Source: a virus
Virus record (IMG/VR): IMGVR_UViG_3300044911_002386
Span: 1 to 64,000 of that record
Strand: one strand, 5' to 3'
Length of the DNA stretch: 64,000 bases
A model generated the notes under the pieces. That model was given only the letters and a program-made list of their open reading frames with translations, ran no database searches and had not been told where the DNA came from. A program made the position numbers and the translations under genes. Of the stretch, positions 28,272 to 35,205 are shown piece after piece (position 1 is the stretch's first letter; every line of letters starts with the position of its first letter).

Positions 28272-30242
28272 GTGCCGAGACGACCGATTAAACCTACGCC
28301 TACGTTTGCACATATGGCACCAGAAAAAATAATGCAGGATGGTAGCCTGCACGAATCAACAGCGGTTGAAATTCCAGACGCAGGAGTTCAATCGCTGTTA
28401 CAAGAACTGCTGTCAATTAACACGGCCGACCAAGCGTCCGTTACATCGCGGACGGCTGTGTTGAAAGAACTGGCAACAAGATGCGCGTTTCCGTCGCTTG
28501 AGCCAATTCTTCCGCTTGTATTGAATTTAAATGGTAAGCCGTACAGTATTAAAGATCATTACCCGTTCGGCCCATTATTCAGAGTATTAACACCCAAAAA
28601 TCAAGTGTGGAAAACCGGGCGTCAGTTAAGTAAATCTACGTCGCTCGCGGCGCATGGAATTGTAGTCGCTAACTCTATTCCATTTTTTAAGACGTTGTAT
28701 GTCACGCCGCTGTACGAGCAGATTCGCCGTTTTTCCAACAATTACGTGCGACCGTTTATCGACCAGTCGCCTGTCAAGTCTCAGTGGTCGAGCAGCGAGA
28801 CTGAGAACTCTGTGTTGCAGCGCAGCTTCAAGAACAAGTCTTTAATGCTGTTTTCTTTTGCACTGCTTGACGCTGACCGTGTCCGCGGTGTGTCGTCTGA
28901 TCGAATGTGCATCGACGAAGTTCAAGACATGGACCCTGACCACATTCCAATTATTCAAGAGACGATGAGTTATTCGCGTTACGCGATTTCTCATTTTACG
29001 GGGACGCCAAAATCGACTGATAACCCGTTAGAGGGGTTGTATAAAAGGAGCAGTCAAGCCGAGTGGTTCATTCCGTGTTACTCGTGCGGCAAGTGGAACA
29101 TACCGTCTATCGAGCACGATCTTGATGCCATGATCGGGCCCATGAACATTCACATCAGCGAGAAAAACCCTGGTACTGTATGTGCAAAGTGTCGCAAACC
29201 GATTAGCCCGCGGCATGGGCGGTGGGTGCATAGACACCCTGACCGCCGCTGGCAATTTGCCGGGTATCACGTGCCGCAATTAATTTTGCCGCTGCACTTC
29301 TCAGATCCTGAAAAATGGAACACGCTGCTACTGAAGCGCGAAGGTTACGGCAACATGACGCAGGCACAGTTCTACAACGAAGTCATGGGCGAATCTATCG
29401 ACGCCGGTCAAAAACTTATTAGCGAAACAGAACTACGTGCGGCGTGCCTGTTGCCATGGGAAAACAAAAAAGAACCCGTACGTGAAGTGTTTGAAAATTT
29501 GAATGATTACCGCTCACGCGTGCTGGCCATCGACTGGGGCGGCGGTGGCGAAGAGGGTATTTCGTTTACTGTGTTGACGGTTCTTGGTTTTCGTCACGAC
29601 GGCACAATTGACGTCCTCTGGGGGAAACGTCTGCTCATCGGCGGCGATCACTTAGCAGAAGCCGTTGAATGCATGAAATACTCTGATTTATTTCAGTGCG
29701 AATTTGTGGCTCACGATTACACCGGGGCCGGCACGGTACGTGAAACCGTTATGGTGCAGGCGGGGTTTAACCTAGACCGCGTGCTAGCGATGCGTTTGGT
29801 GCGGTCAGCGTCGCAGGATCTTATGGTGTACAAACCGCCGACAGCGATCAACCACCGCGCACATTACAGCCTAGATAAAACACGTTCTATTCTTTACACG
29901 TGTCAGGCTATCAAATTAAAACAAGTCAGGTTTTTCCAGTACGACTGGGCTTCGCAGGACTCGCCTGGTTTGATTTCTGACTTTTTAGCGCTGGTAGAGA
30001 ACAAAGCAGAATCACGCATGGGCGGCGACATTTACACCATCACGCGAAACACGCTTCTTAGCGATGATTTCGCGCAGGCTGTAAACATCGGCTGTGCCGC
30101 GTTGTGGCACATCAACGAAGCCTGGCCTAACTTTGCCCAGTTGGCCGGTCTCGGCCGCATTACGCAGCAGCAGGCCAAAAACGAACTTGAAGACGACCAC
30201 TGGGCAGACGACGCTACGGCAGATCGTTTTTTCGGCTATTAA
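28272..30242 (+). CDS. Terminase large subunit (GpA-like ATPase plus RNase H-like nuclease)
   Basis: KTGRQLSKST, DRVRG, IDEVQD, GTPKS, CxxC..CxxC, GYHVPQL, FYNEVMG, AIDWGGG, DDFAQA; true start may be ATG 28314. Confidence 0.88.
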   Translation: MPRRPIKPTPTFAHMAPEKIMQDGSLHESTAVEIPDAGVQSLLQELLSINTADQASVTSRTAVLKELATRCAFPSLEPILPLVLNLNGKPYSIKDHYPFGPLFRVLTPKNQVWKTGRQLSKSTSLAAHGIVVANSIPFFKTLYVTPLYEQIRRFSNNYVRPFIDQSPVKSQWSSSETENSVLQRSFKNKSLMLFSFALLDADRVRGVSSDRMCIDEVQDMDPDHIPIIQETMSYSRYAISHFTGTPKSTDNPLEGLYKRSSQAEWFIPCYSCGKWNIPSIEHDLDAMIGPMNIHISEKNPGTVCAKCRKPISPRHGRWVHRHPDRRWQFAGYHVPQLILPLHFSDPEKWNTLLLKREGYGNMTQAQFYNEVMGESIDAGQKLISETELRAACLLPWENKKEPVREVFENLNDYRSRVLAIDWGGGGEEGISFTVLTVLGFRHDGTIDVLWGKRLLIGGDHLAEAVECMKYSDLFQCEFVAHDYTGAGTVRETVMVQAGFNLDRVLAMRLVRSASQDLMVYKPPTAINHRAHYSLDKTRSILYTCQAIKLKQVRFFQYDWASQDSPGLISDFLALVENKAESRMGGDIYTITRNTLLSDDFAQAVNIGCAALWHINEAWPNFAQLAGLGRITQQQAKNELEDDHWADDATADRFFGY

Positions 30243-31283: not shown

Positions 31284-31547
31284 CTAAGTGGTTTCGTAAT
31301 CTTTGAAGTCGTAATTTGACTTCTGTTCTTTAATAGTCAGTTGCCGTTTGGGGTATTTTTCCGGGTGGCATACCTGACAACGAGCTCGGGCGCAGCCAGC
31401 ACAACGTAAAGACTTTCTGAATCGACCGGCTTCTACTTCTGGCCAATTTCCGATTAAAGACCAAAGTAAGTGCCGGCGCAACTTAGCGCGATTTTCTAGA
31501 ATGTGCTTTTCTTCGTGATAGCGTTTCATTTTTAACTCCGTGTACAA
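31284..31547 (-). CDS. Small basic Cys-rich protein
   Basis: CAGCARARCQVCHP; start may be 31529. Confidence 0.65.
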   Translation of the reverse strand: MYTELKMKRYHEEKHILENRAKLRRHLLWSLIGNWPEVEAGRFRKSLRCAGCARARCQVCHPEKYPKRQLTIKEQKSNYDFKDYETT

Positions 31548-31578: not shown

Positions 31579-32271
31579 TCAGACCTTGACGAGCGACTTC
31601 GAAGCACGACGCTTCTTCATCGCAGCCTCAGTGGGCTCTTCGCCGTACACGGCACTCATGCCAGGCGTGAGGCAATCAGCCGTGAAGCGCCCGAACCTAG
31701 GCCGCCACTCGCACAGGCCGCACATCGTGCCCGCTTTCTTGATCCAGCGATCAAGTTGGGCAAAATTGATGATTGAGTCCTCGAACGAAATCGACACAAC
31801 AGCCGACCAGTCATGGAAGATTGGCCGAGTCGAGACGACGCGAGACTGCTGCCGCGCCACCAGCGTGGTGAACCGGAAACCTTCGGCTTCCGGAGTCGGG
31901 CGGGGCGACGTGTCTTCAAACATTGCTTCCGGCTCGCGCGGACCGGCGTACTCTAACTTAAAGAATCCCGGGGGCGCCGCGAACACAGCGCACTTGGCGA
32001 GCTGGCCTTCCTTGGTCTTTCGAGCCGCGGCGTTAATCGCTGCTACGATGGTCGCACCGGGCAGTACGGGACCCAACTCCTCGTGCATATGCAGGCTGCC
32101 GAGGAACTCAATATGCCCCATCTCGATGTGGTCGGCGTCGGTCTTGACGCGCTTCGAACTGACGCTCTTGAGCGCCTTAGAGAACTTGTTCAGCGGGTTT
32201 GCCATCTGAACGTTTTTCACAACCATCGGGCCGTCCCCGGTGATCTTGTAATCAACATTAACCCAACTCAT
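31579..32271 (-). CDS. Cas7/RAMP-like RRM-fold protein, putative effector for the adjacent GGY-NN array (Vipr-like)
   Basis: N-terminal YKITGDGPMVVKN strand, VLPGATIVAAI helix, SRVVSTRPIFHDW, C-terminal Gly-rich loop AGTMCGLCEWRPRFGRF; ATGA-coupled to the HNH gene. Confidence 0.75.
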   Translation of the reverse strand: MSWVNVDYKITGDGPMVVKNVQMANPLNKFSKALKSVSSKRVKTDADHIEMGHIEFLGSLHMHEELGPVLPGATIVAAINAAARKTKEGQLAKCAVFAAPPGFFKLEYAGPREPEAMFEDTSPRPTPEAEGFRFTTLVARQQSRVVSTRPIFHDWSAVVSISFEDSIINFAQLDRWIKKAGTMCGLCEWRPRFGRFTADCLTPGMSAVYGEEPTEAAMKKRRASKSLVKV

Positions 32272-32585
32272 TGATCTATGTCCTTCCGTTGATGAATCGT
32301 GGGAACAATGTAATTACAGCCCAAGTCTTTGTTTTTGTAGCGACGAGCTCGTATTACATTTGTTATTGCTTCGTGACACTCGCTGCATAGCGTAATTAAA
32401 TCTTTTTCGACATCCTCTTCGCCAAACCGTTCATACGTCTTGTGATGCACTTCGAGCTGATATACAGATCCGTCGTGCAAACACGTTTGGCATTCATAGT
32501 TGTCAATCACTAGACGTTGCGTGCGCTTTTCACACCAGTCATATCTGGCCATGCGCACGGCATAATTTAACGTCGTTGAATCCAT
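32268..32585 (-). CDS. HNH endonuclease
   Basis: W..KR..RL..DNYECQTC...LEVHHKTY...DLITLCSECH; AGGGG RBS. Confidence 0.88.
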   Translation of the reverse strand: MDSTTLNYAVRMARYDWCEKRTQRLVIDNYECQTCLHDGSVYQLEVHHKTYERFGEEDVEKDLITLCSECHEAITNVIRARRYKNKDLGCNYIVPTIHQRKDIDQ

Positions 32586-32596
32586 TTGTTACCCCT

Positions 32597-32629
32597 GGTT
32601 TATGTGTAGTTTCCGCAGCACATAAAACC
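32597..32629 (-). other. Hairpin at the 3' end of the array, just upstream of the HNH RBS
   Basis: Plus strand GGTTTATGTG...CACATAAAACC inverted repeat. Confidence 0.5.
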
Positions 32630-33457
32630 GCAACCTACCCTAATTGTTTTGAAAGAAAAAACCAAACCCAACGTCACCCTGCGTTACCTTACCGGACGTT
32701 ACCCGACCTTACCGGACCATATTTTGTTTGAAAGAAAAAACCAGACCTGACCAAACCCCAGCTTATGCCACCCCACCGAGCCAAACCCTATTTTGTTTGA
32801 AAGAGAAAACCAGACCTTACCGTGCCTGACGTTACGCTACCGAACCAGACCGCACCCTAAATTGTTTTGAAAGAAAAAACCGAACCAAACCCAATAGCGC
32901 CATGCGTTACCGAACGAAATCAAACGTTGCCAAAACAGACACTACCGAACCGTACCGGACCTAACGCAAATTATTTGAAAAAACCATACCGAAAGCTACC
33001 GGACAAAACGCAACGATACCGGACCTGACCGCAAAATTTTGAGAAGAGAAAACCAAACAAAACCGAGCCTAACGATACCCTGCCGTACGCTTGTTGAGAA
33101 AAAAACCATACCTGACCTGATCCCGCCATACCGTACCATGCCGTACCGGACAAGACCCTACACGACGTTACAACACCTTATATGTTTGAAAGAAAAAACC
33201 AGATCTGACCAAACCCCAACTTACCCTGCCCCACGCTACAGTTTTGAAAAAGAAAAACCCTGCCACACCGTACCAAACCTAACCCGACGGCATTCGACCG
33301 AAGCTAACCACAAAGTTTTGAAAGAAAAAACCATACCCGATCGAACGTTACAACACCTCACGTCACCAGACCCGACCTAACGATAAAGTTTTGAAAGAAA
33401 AAACCTAACCTTACGCCGCCATACCGAGCCGGACCTGACCTTACGCCAGCCGACCAT
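32624..33457 (-). repeat. Non-coding array of 11 GGY-NN pentamer units separated by a conserved U-rich delimiter; putative guide-RNA array
   Basis: Plus-strand delimiter TTTGAAAGAAAAAACC or variants at 32648, 32727, 32796, 32866, 32974, 33038, 33093, 33185, 33243, 33317 and 33390, followed by 11, 9, 9, 17, 9, 7, 14, 8, 10, 10 and 10 in-phase NN-RCC pentamers (hand count); strand inferred from flanking genes. Confidence 0.92.
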
Positions 33458-33464
33458 AAGTATG

Positions 33465-33914
33465 TTATTTAGCGCTGTCGCCAAGAATGACGTTGCGACA
33501 GCCGCACGATGTTGCGAGAGGAAGCACATCATCTGCATAGCCCGCGACTAGTTTCTCTTTGTCGAGATAACCAGTGCTGATAAGTGCCTGCAAGCCTAAT
33601 CGAGCAAAGCCCCGCCGCCGGAACGCCGGGTCGACAAAGCATTCCACCGTCTGCACAGCGACAAACGTGTCTTTTACATGCTCGCGCCATGGGCGTGTGC
33701 CCACCCAGCCGACTAAAACACCTTTAAGCCACACGAAGGCTATTGCCATGTTGGGGTGCGGGCCTGGCTGCGGGTTGAGGTAACGCTTATCCAGTTCTTT
33801 TTGAATAGAGCTCGCACTGCCTGAGTCTGGCCACGAAAGCCGCGAACAAATAGCAGCGACATCAACCGGCCGCAATTGATTGATGTCTTTGATGTAAATG
33901 TTAATCTCGTCCAT
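33465..33914 (-). CDS. GNAT-family acetyltransferase
   Basis: LVGWVG...ECFVDPAFRRRGFARLGL (motif A); GGAGG RBS before ATG 33914. Confidence 0.85.
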   Translation of the reverse strand: MDEINIYIKDINQLRPVDVAAICSRLSWPDSGSASSIQKELDKRYLNPQPGPHPNMAIAFVWLKGVLVGWVGTRPWREHVKDTFVAVQTVECFVDPAFRRRGFARLGLQALISTGYLDKEKLVAGYADDVLPLATSCGCRNVILGDSAK

Positions 33915-33949
33915 ATAGGCCTCCATACCTGGCACACGAGTTTAACTAT

Positions 33950-34022
33950 AGCCGGCGGCGGGAGTCGAACCCGCAACCTACTGATTACAAATCAGTTGCG
34001 CTGCCAATTGTGCCACGCCGGC
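33950..34022 (-). tRNA. tRNA-Thr(TGT)
   Basis: GCCGGCG/CGCCGGC acceptor; ACTGA-TTTGTAA-TCAGT; GCGGG-TTCGACT-CCCGC. Confidence 0.95.
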
Positions 34023-34034
34023 GATCCGCACAGT

Positions 34035-34400
34035 TTACCCAAAATCGATGGCGCTAATAGCCGCAAATTGTCGCATGGTCATGAATTTAACGCGTTCGCG
34101 GTAAAAAGCCGCGTCGTGATGAGCACTGATTGATTCGCCCTCGTTATCATTGCCAAGAACTAAACCGTAACCCGCCAGCGGTTGCGGGTAGTCGGGCAGT
34201 GCAAAAAACTTAGTGCTGGGCTCGAGTTTGAGTAAGCCTTCGTCGTCAACAAAGACGTCATCGTCATCAGCCAGACGCACCAACGCAAAACAATCGACCT
34301 TGATGTGCTCATAGATTTGCTTGTAGTCGCCGTTATACGTGACGTCTGTGACTTCTTCTTTGTACGGGTCAATCAGGACAGCCTTGTGTTCAGCAGTCAT
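34035..34400 (-). CDS. DUF3846-like protein
   Basis: AVLIDP...FVDDEGLL...PLAGYGLVLG. Confidence 0.8.
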   Translation of the reverse strand: MTAEHKAVLIDPYKEEVTDVTYNGDYKQIYEHIKVDCFALVRLADDDDVFVDDEGLLKLEPSTKFFALPDYPQPLAGYGLVLGNDNEGESISAHHDAAFYRERVKFMTMRQFAAISAIDFG

Positions 34401-34858
34401 ACGGGCTCCAGTTTTGTAGGCCATACGTACGGCAGGTAGATCTCTTCCATCCAGCCAAATTTGGAATAGTGCGCGTAATCTTTACGCAAGAGATTGCCGC
34501 GGTGAGACGCATGAAAGTCATCGTCGCCAAACCACGGCGGGTAATTATTTGCTTTTATTGTCGGTCTAATAATTGAGTACCGATGTTCAAATTCCCGGCA
34601 TAGATTGTCTGTAAACTTGCGGCGGCGCCACTCACGGCACATGACGATGCTATAAACAAGCAGGGCTGTTTCATAGCCTGCCCACATTTGCACCGCCGGG
34701 TGGTTACGCCAGCGAGAGACGCTTGGCATATGGGCACCAATCGGCACGCCTAGGCACAGCAGTATTTGTTTACACTCTACGCGCTGTTTGCCTAGACGCT
34801 TATTGTCCAGCACCGCCGCCGACCGCCGAAAACTCGGCAGGGGCAGAAATGTTTGCAT
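34397..34858 (-). CDS. Pyrimidine-dimer DNA glycosylase / endonuclease V-like protein (MSMEG_6728 type)
   Basis: MQTFLP...LDNKRLGKQRVECKQI...HPAVQMW...PPWFG...SHRGNLLRKD...YVWP. Confidence 0.88.
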   Translation of the reverse strand: MQTFLPLPSFRRSAAVLDNKRLGKQRVECKQILLCLGVPIGAHMPSVSRWRNHPAVQMWAGYETALLVYSIVMCREWRRRKFTDNLCREFEHRYSIIRPTIKANNYPPWFGDDDFHASHRGNLLRKDYAHYSKFGWMEEIYLPYVWPTKLEPV

Positions 34859-34863
34859 GTTAA

Positions 34864-35205
34864 TTAGTCATCGTAATCGTCGGAATCAAAGTCGTGCTCG
34901 TACTCGGGCTCTTCTTCGTCTTCGTCTTCGTCGTCTTCGTCTTCGTCATTCCAGCTAAATGACTCTTCGTCATCTTCTTCTTCGTAATCCTCGTCTTCGT
35001 AATCCTCATCTTCGTCTTCGTCATCTTCGTCGGCGTACCAGTCGACATTTGGCTTGTATAAGACGTCGTCATCGTCGTCATCGTCATCGTCATCGTTGTC
35101 GCTGACGAACTGCCACTCTTCTTCAATGAAATCGTCGTCCAACCCGTCGTCGTGGTCTTTTTTGCTAAAAATGGATTGTTCAGCCCGTCGACGATCATAT
35201 GCCAT
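34864..35205 (-). CDS. Extremely acidic protein
   Basis: About 65 of 113 residues are D/E (hand count); fits between flanking genes. Confidence 0.75.
   Translation of the reverse strand: MAYDRRRAEQSIFSKKDHDDGLDDDFIEEEWQFVSDNDDDDDDDDDDVLYKPNVDWYADEDDEDEDEDYEDEDYEEEDDEESFSWNDEDEDDEDEDEEEPEYEHDFDSDDYDD

Follow-up and report, generated by a model that had tools for sequence, protein, structure and literature searches.

A gene for a 105-residue HNH nuclease lies between a guide-RNA array and a RAMP-like gene in a phage genome, which raises the question of whether it belongs to the RNA-guided system around it and, if it does, whether it lets that system cut DNA. The locus is found in the window, the 64,000-nucleotide stretch analysed here, which is the first 64 kb of a virus record of 167,811 bases that is 82% complete; the host element of the cassette is a ~205-kb jumbo phage. 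The gene order on the minus strand is guide-RNA array, HNH and vipr, and the cassette and its surroundings contain the following features:

28272..30242, plus strand: terminase large subunit (Pfam, PHROG), a viral marker and the anchor for comparison of sister phages
31284..31547, minus strand: gene for an 87-aa protein, the downstream flank of the cassette
31579..32271, minus strand: vipr, a RAMP/Cas7-like guide-binding subunit (230 aa, of which the last ~25 form a basic C-terminal extension)
32268..32271, minus strand: ATGA stop/start overlap of the HNH TGA and the vipr ATG (sequence)
32268..32585, minus strand: HNH (His-Me finger) nuclease of 105 aa, the VIPR accessory (Vap) (Pfam, alignment and model)
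32281..32287, minus strand: GGAAGGA inside the 3' end of HNH, a putative Shine-Dalgarno-like site for vipr read from the sequence
32622..33457, minus strand: vrRNA array of 11 complete units and a partial twelfth, with GGY/NN-type pentamers
33465..33935, minus strand: GNAT acetyltransferase gene, the upstream flank of the cassette

Identification of the locus as a VIPR system

The locus is a VIPR system (bioRxiv 10.64898/2026.04.26.720920), a CRISPR-related system for RNA-guided DNA targeting. That preprint defines a VIPR by a stand-alone RAMP, guides whose NN pairs skip one base in reading DNA, and a lone accessory gene; the window has a Vipr homologue, a pentamer array with a constant tail, and vipr accompanied by a single accessory gene. 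The RAMP-like protein matches the Vipr of Escherichia phage SUSP1 (PDB 36pp) over residues 7-204 (phmmer E 2.6e-26), and its profile search and its match to phrog_4652 gave E values of 4.8e-56 and 1.3e-43, respectively. The initial annotation had seen an RNA-guided locus with an array and a RAMP-like gene, which the SUSP1 match now identifies as a Vipr homologue, but had not recognised in it the published VIPR.

Array units hold about 6-17 pentamers each and are closed by a constant T-rich tail, GGTTTTTTCTTTCAAA. GG starts about half to two thirds of the pentamers, and the rest are degenerate (CGT, GCT, TGT). The final GG pentamer ends near 32625, 39 nt before the HNH ATG, in agreement with the gap of ~40 nt first reported between array and HNH; the end of the last complete unit, 32648, is 62 nt from the ATG. 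No sigma-70 promoter was found at the locus.

The open reading frame and its match to PF01844 (34.3 bits, E 2.6e-8, cut-off 21.4) bear out the earlier description of a 105-aa HNH with CxxC, VHH and CxxCH motifs, here placed on the minus strand. The motifs are C32xxC35, V46-H47-H48 and C67xxC70-H71; C32, C35, C67 and C70 are the zinc cysteines and H48, D62 and H71 the triad. The subfamily carries the signature residues T75, R79, R82 and Y83, in the pattern CxxCH-x3-T-x3-R. The protein also matches many PHROG HNH families. PADLOC holds no model for the HNH or Vipr protein apart from weak HNH matches, and none of the cultured phages in the collection has an HNH of this kind adjoining vipr.

VIPRs and their HNH-domain accessories are already known as predictions from the 2026 preprints. 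The first preprint gives predicted nucleases or helicases to types III-V (Yoon et al., bioRxiv 10.64898/2026.04.26.720920), and the legend of its fig. S21 places HNH among the Vaps of types II, III and VII, of which its text calls II and VII DNA-binding. The HNH-domain accessory is a prediction there, and the preprint reports no activity of a nuclease Vap. The companion structure paper describes what such accessories do as unclear; for published VIPRs, silencing is the sole activity demonstrated, and cutting by any of them is stated as an open question (bioRxiv.720927).

The window locus is probably a type III VIPR, the type with a nuclease Vap. With the published nuclease-Vap VIPRs (Fig. 5A, figs S21-S22) it shares the Vipr homologue, GGY/NN vrRNAs, the two-gene layout and the HNH-domain accessory. 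It differs from them in setting: the pair is carried by a free jumbo phage and is preceded by an array of 11 guides, whereas the first preprint describes nuclease types as enriched in host defence islands, with nuclease genes gained after transfer to cells. This is a tendency in that paper and not a rule, and the window locus lies in a virus record, with the terminase gene 2 kb away. Relatives on plasmids of Bradyrhizobium and Azospirillum have HNH, vipr and a short GGY/NN tract downstream, like the published single-vrRNA systems, and in our own Vipr tree the window Vipr groups with the plasmid HNH-vipr loci (weak support).

The type II VIPR of SUSP1 (PDB 36pp; bioRxiv.720927, 10.64898/2026.10.15.759431) likewise has a homologous Vipr, is phage-borne and multi-guide, and is aimed at competing elements. 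In contrast to the window locus, its accessory Vap1 lies downstream and is predicted to bind DNA, the system acts by silencing, and its Vipr falls in the non-HNH group. An HNH profile search of a Felixounavirus locus found nothing.

Some neighbours of the cassette deserve mention. A tRNA-Thr gene lies at 33950-34022(-), just upstream of the GNAT gene, as one of 8 tRNA calls in the genome. Further along are a pyrimidine-dimer DNA glycosylase gene (PF03013) at 34397-34858(-), kept in most sister phages, and a 113-aa ORF at 34864-35205(-) whose product is nearly all Asp and Glu and could be a DNA mimic or histone-like decoy.

Linkage and co-descent of HNH and vipr

Small HNH genes are common in phages, and the HNH could be a passenger: an ordinary small phage enzyme, such as a homing or packaging helper, that happens to sit between array and vipr. 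The genome does encode a second generic HNH (124877-125059(-), 29.9 bits), which is unrelated and has no vipr adjoining it, and both a GVE2-like structure and the terminase 2 kb off would suit such an origin. The genomic distribution of the gene argues against it. Counted in 90%-clusters of HNH-anchored loci from viral, genome and metagenome collections, an HNH with the signature lies directly upstream of vipr in 78/79 informative clusters, while look-alikes that lack the signature have vipr downstream in 3/36 (Fisher p 3e-24, for clusters that are not phylogenetically independent). All 57 informative clusters at 100 bits or more are paired with vipr, versus 0/20 below 60 bits, and three divergent homologues chosen by HNH sequence alone were each followed directly by vipr, although their surroundings were unrelated. 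Phages that are not related to one another, plasmids and MAGs all carry the pair, and none of the 121 neighbours of the family is a third conserved one. These neighbours are mostly phage genes (terminases, portals, tails, replication); most of the loci come from a viral collection, and the viral share of the family cannot be read from them.

The same question can be put to the site itself. Among 55 terminase-anchored loci of sister phages that span it, both genes are missing in 51 and both are present in 2; another 2 carry a different Vipr-like gene and no HNH, and HNH alone occurs in none. The flanking genes persist in cassette-free sisters, in most of which the GNAT gene adjoins the 87-aa gene. 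This all-or-none pattern indicates that the cassette moves as a unit. Selection on the protein is strong and purifying: for unsaturated close pairs of the jumbo-phage clade, dN/dS of the HNH core is 0.016-0.085, and its dN tracks that of vipr.

The HNH is thus a dedicated partner of vipr. The suggestion in the initial annotation that it might be a passenger is rejected by the 78/79 linkage and the sister-phage survey, and we regard that reading as very improbable. It resembles free-standing phage HNHs (GVE2 HNH, PDB 5H0M; T4 mob genes, PMC2988022) in size, zinc-finger HNH fold and optional presence among related phages, but differs from them in having no DNA-binding domain of its own, in its strict linkage to vipr and array, and in showing no sign of independent movement or decay. 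A homing HNH that moves independently was rejected on the same sister-locus and linkage counts.

Viewed from Vipr, the HNH is present upstream in 32/61 informative clusters and near-throughout one Vipr clade, rather than absent from most homologous loci. The HNH-bearing Viprs largely form one group apart from SUSP1-like Viprs (8 label changes vs 29 when shuffled, with weak deep support), and on the HNH tree the paired state changes 2 times vs 28.8. The co-phylogeny of the two proteins, a check proposed with the initial annotation along with co-occurrence, is partly apparent: the Mantel correlation is rho 0.26 (p 0.001) and after thinning 0.24 (p 0.014), and 16/24 strong Vipr splits recur in the tree of the 78-aa HNH alignment, with five split conflicts between HNH and Vipr. 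Three Viprs inside the HNH clade (L039, L040 and L091) are without HNH, so Vipr can be kept without it.

Several loci of the family differ in detail. One signature HNH (L270:2344-2712) is without vipr and is followed by another HNH-like gene, and the HNH of L006 was missed by the gene caller and recovered by six-frame search. A UvrD helicase gene directly precedes HNH-vipr at L011:3271-6051, where a four-unit array has hairpin-forming spacers. In a close relative (L003:2478-4022), a 514-aa gene with a faint GmrSD match is inserted just upstream of the array, and other relatives have 2OG-Fe(II) oxygenase genes upstream of it. At L007:1-667 a close vipr homologue is split across two frames, by a frameshift or an assembly error.

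At the HNH/vipr junction, the TGA and ATG do overlap as first described, sharing ATGA at 32271-32268; the translational coupling that was read from this overlap may operate, though vipr also has the GGAAGGA as a possible site of its own. As a family trait such coupling was rejected: the ATGA junction occurs in 7/83 HNH-vipr clusters, mostly of the jumbo-phage clade. In 75/83 clusters, for example at L008:5001-5877, the HNH frame instead extends, typically by 50-290 nt, into vipr out of frame, covering the first 25-45 or more vipr codons. In this long-overlap group, third bases that would create a stop are found at 11/292 positions in the first 25 vipr codons vs 574/1662 later, whereas the ATGA group shows no stop avoidance in the first 25 codons (12/35). 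Synonymous change in the overlap region is 0.22-0.26 vs 0.40 (few controls). Stop avoidance and lowered synonymous change together indicate that most relatives keep an overlapping HNH tail under selection. The spacing of the HNH anchor is 108 nt in the ATGA clade vs 107 nt in long-overlap relatives, and the overlapping tail was apparently lost in the jumbo-phage clade by a one-base shift.

Other relations between the two frames were considered. A programmed frameshift into vipr was not supported: inspection of the window junction by eye revealed no slippery heptamer, and the HNH stops have no context in common. No HNH-Vipr fusion occurs among 87 longer HNH homologues or 148 representatives, which is weak evidence of absence; P0196, with a lone 22-residue Vipr-like match of 15 bits, is not a fusion. 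At L026:1869-3137 the HNH open frame runs ~420 codons stop to stop upstream, possibly as an N-terminal fusion.

Active site and predicted role of the HNH

The predicted structure of the HNH (pLDDT 87.7) shows a beta-beta-alpha core and a long final helix. Its best PDB match by sequence is the type I-E Cas5-HNH (E 3.5e-6), which is also ranked first by Foldseek (E 4.4e-3); with VIA-align, the GVE2 phage HNH (PDB 5H0M; Z 8.8, rmsd 3.2, 80 aligned residues) stands above Cas5-HNH (Z 7.1). Cas5-HNH uses H310, D324 and H333, with Asp in place of Asn, and the H310A and D324A substitutions abolish cutting (PMC11794572). These residues align with H48, D62 and H71 of the window HNH, which are conserved in 80/80, 68/80 and 80/80 paired homologues; H47, C32, C67 and C70 are invariant in the 80 as well. 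From this sequence comparison, the active site looks competent. Asp at the 'N' position is also found in unpaired look-alikes, so the triad match is not specific. Cas5-HNH, on a long branch, takes no firm place inside or outside the VIPR HNH clade (39.9 vs 34.9 bits), and the two HNH domains may or may not share a special ancestor.

Type I-E HNH-Cascade (PMC10910872, PMC11794572; PDB 8YB6, 8ZP9) shares with the window locus the H-D-H triad, the Thr after the last His and, as predicted for the window, an HNH working with a RAMP filament on guide RNA. In HNH-Cascade the nuclease is fused to Cas5 and held by Cas6/Cas11, and the crRNA pairs contiguously next to a PAM; the window HNH is a separate protein. 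Its separate gene and the lack of cas genes led us to reject an assignment of the locus to HNH-Cascade (type I-E/I-F variants), in which HNH is fused to Cas5 or Cas8 in a cas operon that has a CRISPR array.

Structure prediction of the HNH-Vipr complex, one of the checks proposed initially, gave a score of 0.60 vs 0.15 for the best control. The mark used was reached by 58/80 solved complexes and 2/110 mismatched pairs; those that reached it with a score of 0.60 or under were only 7 of the 80 solved complexes, but both mismatches. The contacts shared between runs amount to at least 0%, the pLDDT of the partner is 61 or more, and no interface was returned; support for binding is weak. Given the genomic linkage, the prediction shifts the odds of HNH-Vipr binding a little.

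How might such a protein work with Vipr? According to the two preprints (bioRxiv 10.64898/2026.04.26.720920 and.720927), in other VIPRs the Vipr subunits polymerise on each vrRNA, and the NN pairs read double-stranded DNA with a one-base skip and no PAM, forming an R-loop triplex. We consider it fairly likely that the HNH is a dedicated nuclease Vap: the Vipr-vrRNA filament would find the target, and the separate HNH would dock and cut near the filament end. The array, HNH and vipr are gained and lost as a single cassette, and a few HNH molecules, supplied in trans from the same transcript, would dock on the target-bound filament. There the HNH may nick or cut the DNA where the filament ends or slightly past that point, by analogy with Cas5-HNH, which acts at the end of Cascade; the cut is placed here because in the SUSP1 structures the non-target strand is clamped within the filament, which leaves a nuclease access to the ends alone. 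DNA and Vipr are probably bound by the basic helix after H71 (T75-Y83) and the next conserved segment. With cutting, co-infecting phages, satellites or prophages would be destroyed and not just silenced. Recruitment of the HNH by the RNP and guide-dependent cutting, as proposed in the initial annotation, fit the intact Cas5-HNH-type triad and the weak complex prediction. Counting against this explanation, most relatives keep a long overlapping C-terminal tail under selection, and the window HNH is without it.

The HNH could instead be an accessory that does not cut but boosts silencing, as a zinc-finger protein for DNA binding or loading. Its model would be SUSP1 Vap1, which is predicted to bind DNA and increases the protection given by VIPR. 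Of the 80 paired HNHs, 77 have Thr four residues past H71; the commonest residue there in look-alikes is His, a third metal ligand in many HNHs, and the conserved basic helix would suit DNA binding. However, active Cas5-HNH has the same Thr (T337), four residues after its last His, and the same Asp, and the general base H48 is invariant in 80/80 homologues, which would be needless in a dead enzyme. We therefore judge a non-cutting role to be improbable. With a nuclease Vap as the preferred reading, the HNH would probably enable VIPR to go beyond silencing and cleave the DNA of rival phages, and the locus offers a compact test case, with an active site of known type and ready point mutants (H48A, D62A). 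If cutting holds true, the locus would encode an RNA-guided nuclease of very small size that needs no PAM and reads a gapped code.

Candidate guide targets and movement of the cassette

Two guides of the window gave matches that may bear on its victims:

32727..32795, minus strand: guide unit 9, which by the 1-nt skip rule spells FSGGKGFHL
33317..33389, minus strand: guide unit 2, with an 18/20 in-frame match in a small gene beside the terminase of the VIPR-free sister L321

Candidate targets under the skip rule are single wobble-phased matches, at 18/18 in L292, 18/20 in L321 and 20/22 for a guide of a relative. The motif FSGGKGFHL was recognised as a primase motif ahead of the search. Guide 9 matches 18/18, in frame, at that motif in a phage primase-helicase gene (L292), its sole exact match in viral contigs. 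Guide 4 has 6 exact matches in viral contigs, of which one is in frame in an SGSKGFHL motif and five look like chance, which puts the chance of a stray 18-base match near 0.3. With a stray match at ~0.3 and the motif being widespread, guide 9 names a gene family and not a victim. Guides 4 (33185-33242) and 9 have their last five dinucleotides (K-G-F-H-L) in common, which suggests that one guide was duplicated and the copies were redirected to different versions of a single primase motif.

Most window guides are without a target in the searches run: guides 1 and 10 have no exact match in viral contigs. Guides of 18 or more bases have no match above 80% in their own genome that would indicate self-targeting. 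The matches that are observed fit competition between viruses.

The presence of the cassette as a polymorphism at one site among sisters would suit homing in the manner of the free-standing homing endonucleases of T4 (PMC2988022). An RNA-guided version of this, in which guides direct the HNH to cut in a cassette-free sister during co-infection and repair copies the cassette into it, would add to the preferred reading of a nuclease Vap and not replace it. The match of guide 2 lies ~1.3 kb from the empty site of L321 and is the only one in 39 records, with none for the reversed control. In up to 30 sister loci, an AAA-ATPase gene is matched at 20/22 by a guide of the relative L002, the skipped base being the wobble base, and a guide of L001 matches 16/18 in a sister's DUF1257 gene. 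Against homing, seven other window guides have no match in 20-39 sister records, two guides spell the primase motif, and the guide-9 pattern has no match in 20 sister records. Skip-1 matches of 210 guides to the pooled loci number 11 vs 5-10 in controls, without enrichment, and those of 36 clade guides to sister loci 4 vs 2-3. The cassette is also rare among sisters (2/55), unlike an efficient homing element. Homing of the cassette is possible, if thinly supported, and we think it rather unlikely.

Compared with the predictions in the preprints, what is new here is the quantified exclusivity of HNH and vipr, the correspondence with the triad of Cas5-HNH, the presence or absence of the cassette as a whole in sister jumbo phages, the overlapping tail under selection, and a phage setting at odds with the model of host-acquired nucleases. 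Spread of the pair among phages questions whether nucleases were added only after hosts had captured VIPR, and the timing of nuclease gain bears on the origin of CRISPR class 1 interference. We offer, tentatively and as a doubtful extension, that HNH-VIPR could be a programmable nuclease without a PAM that arose in phages, consists of two small proteins (105 + 230 aa) and serves in conflicts of virus with virus, perhaps also in RNA-guided homing of the cassette into sister phages, that the HNH subfamily may be the source of the Cas5-HNH domain, and that the nuclease would predate host defence islands, against the published model.

The two sister loci with a different Vipr-like gene (L319:15127-15978(-) and L369:14370-15161(-)) each encode a distant Vipr/RAMP-like protein (37-39 bits) with a glycine-rich C-terminal loop. 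No GGY array is evident in the 700 nt upstream of the gene in L369. Both genes lie, without HNH, in the same variable region as the window cassette, and cassettes of this kind may preferentially insert there in the sister phages.
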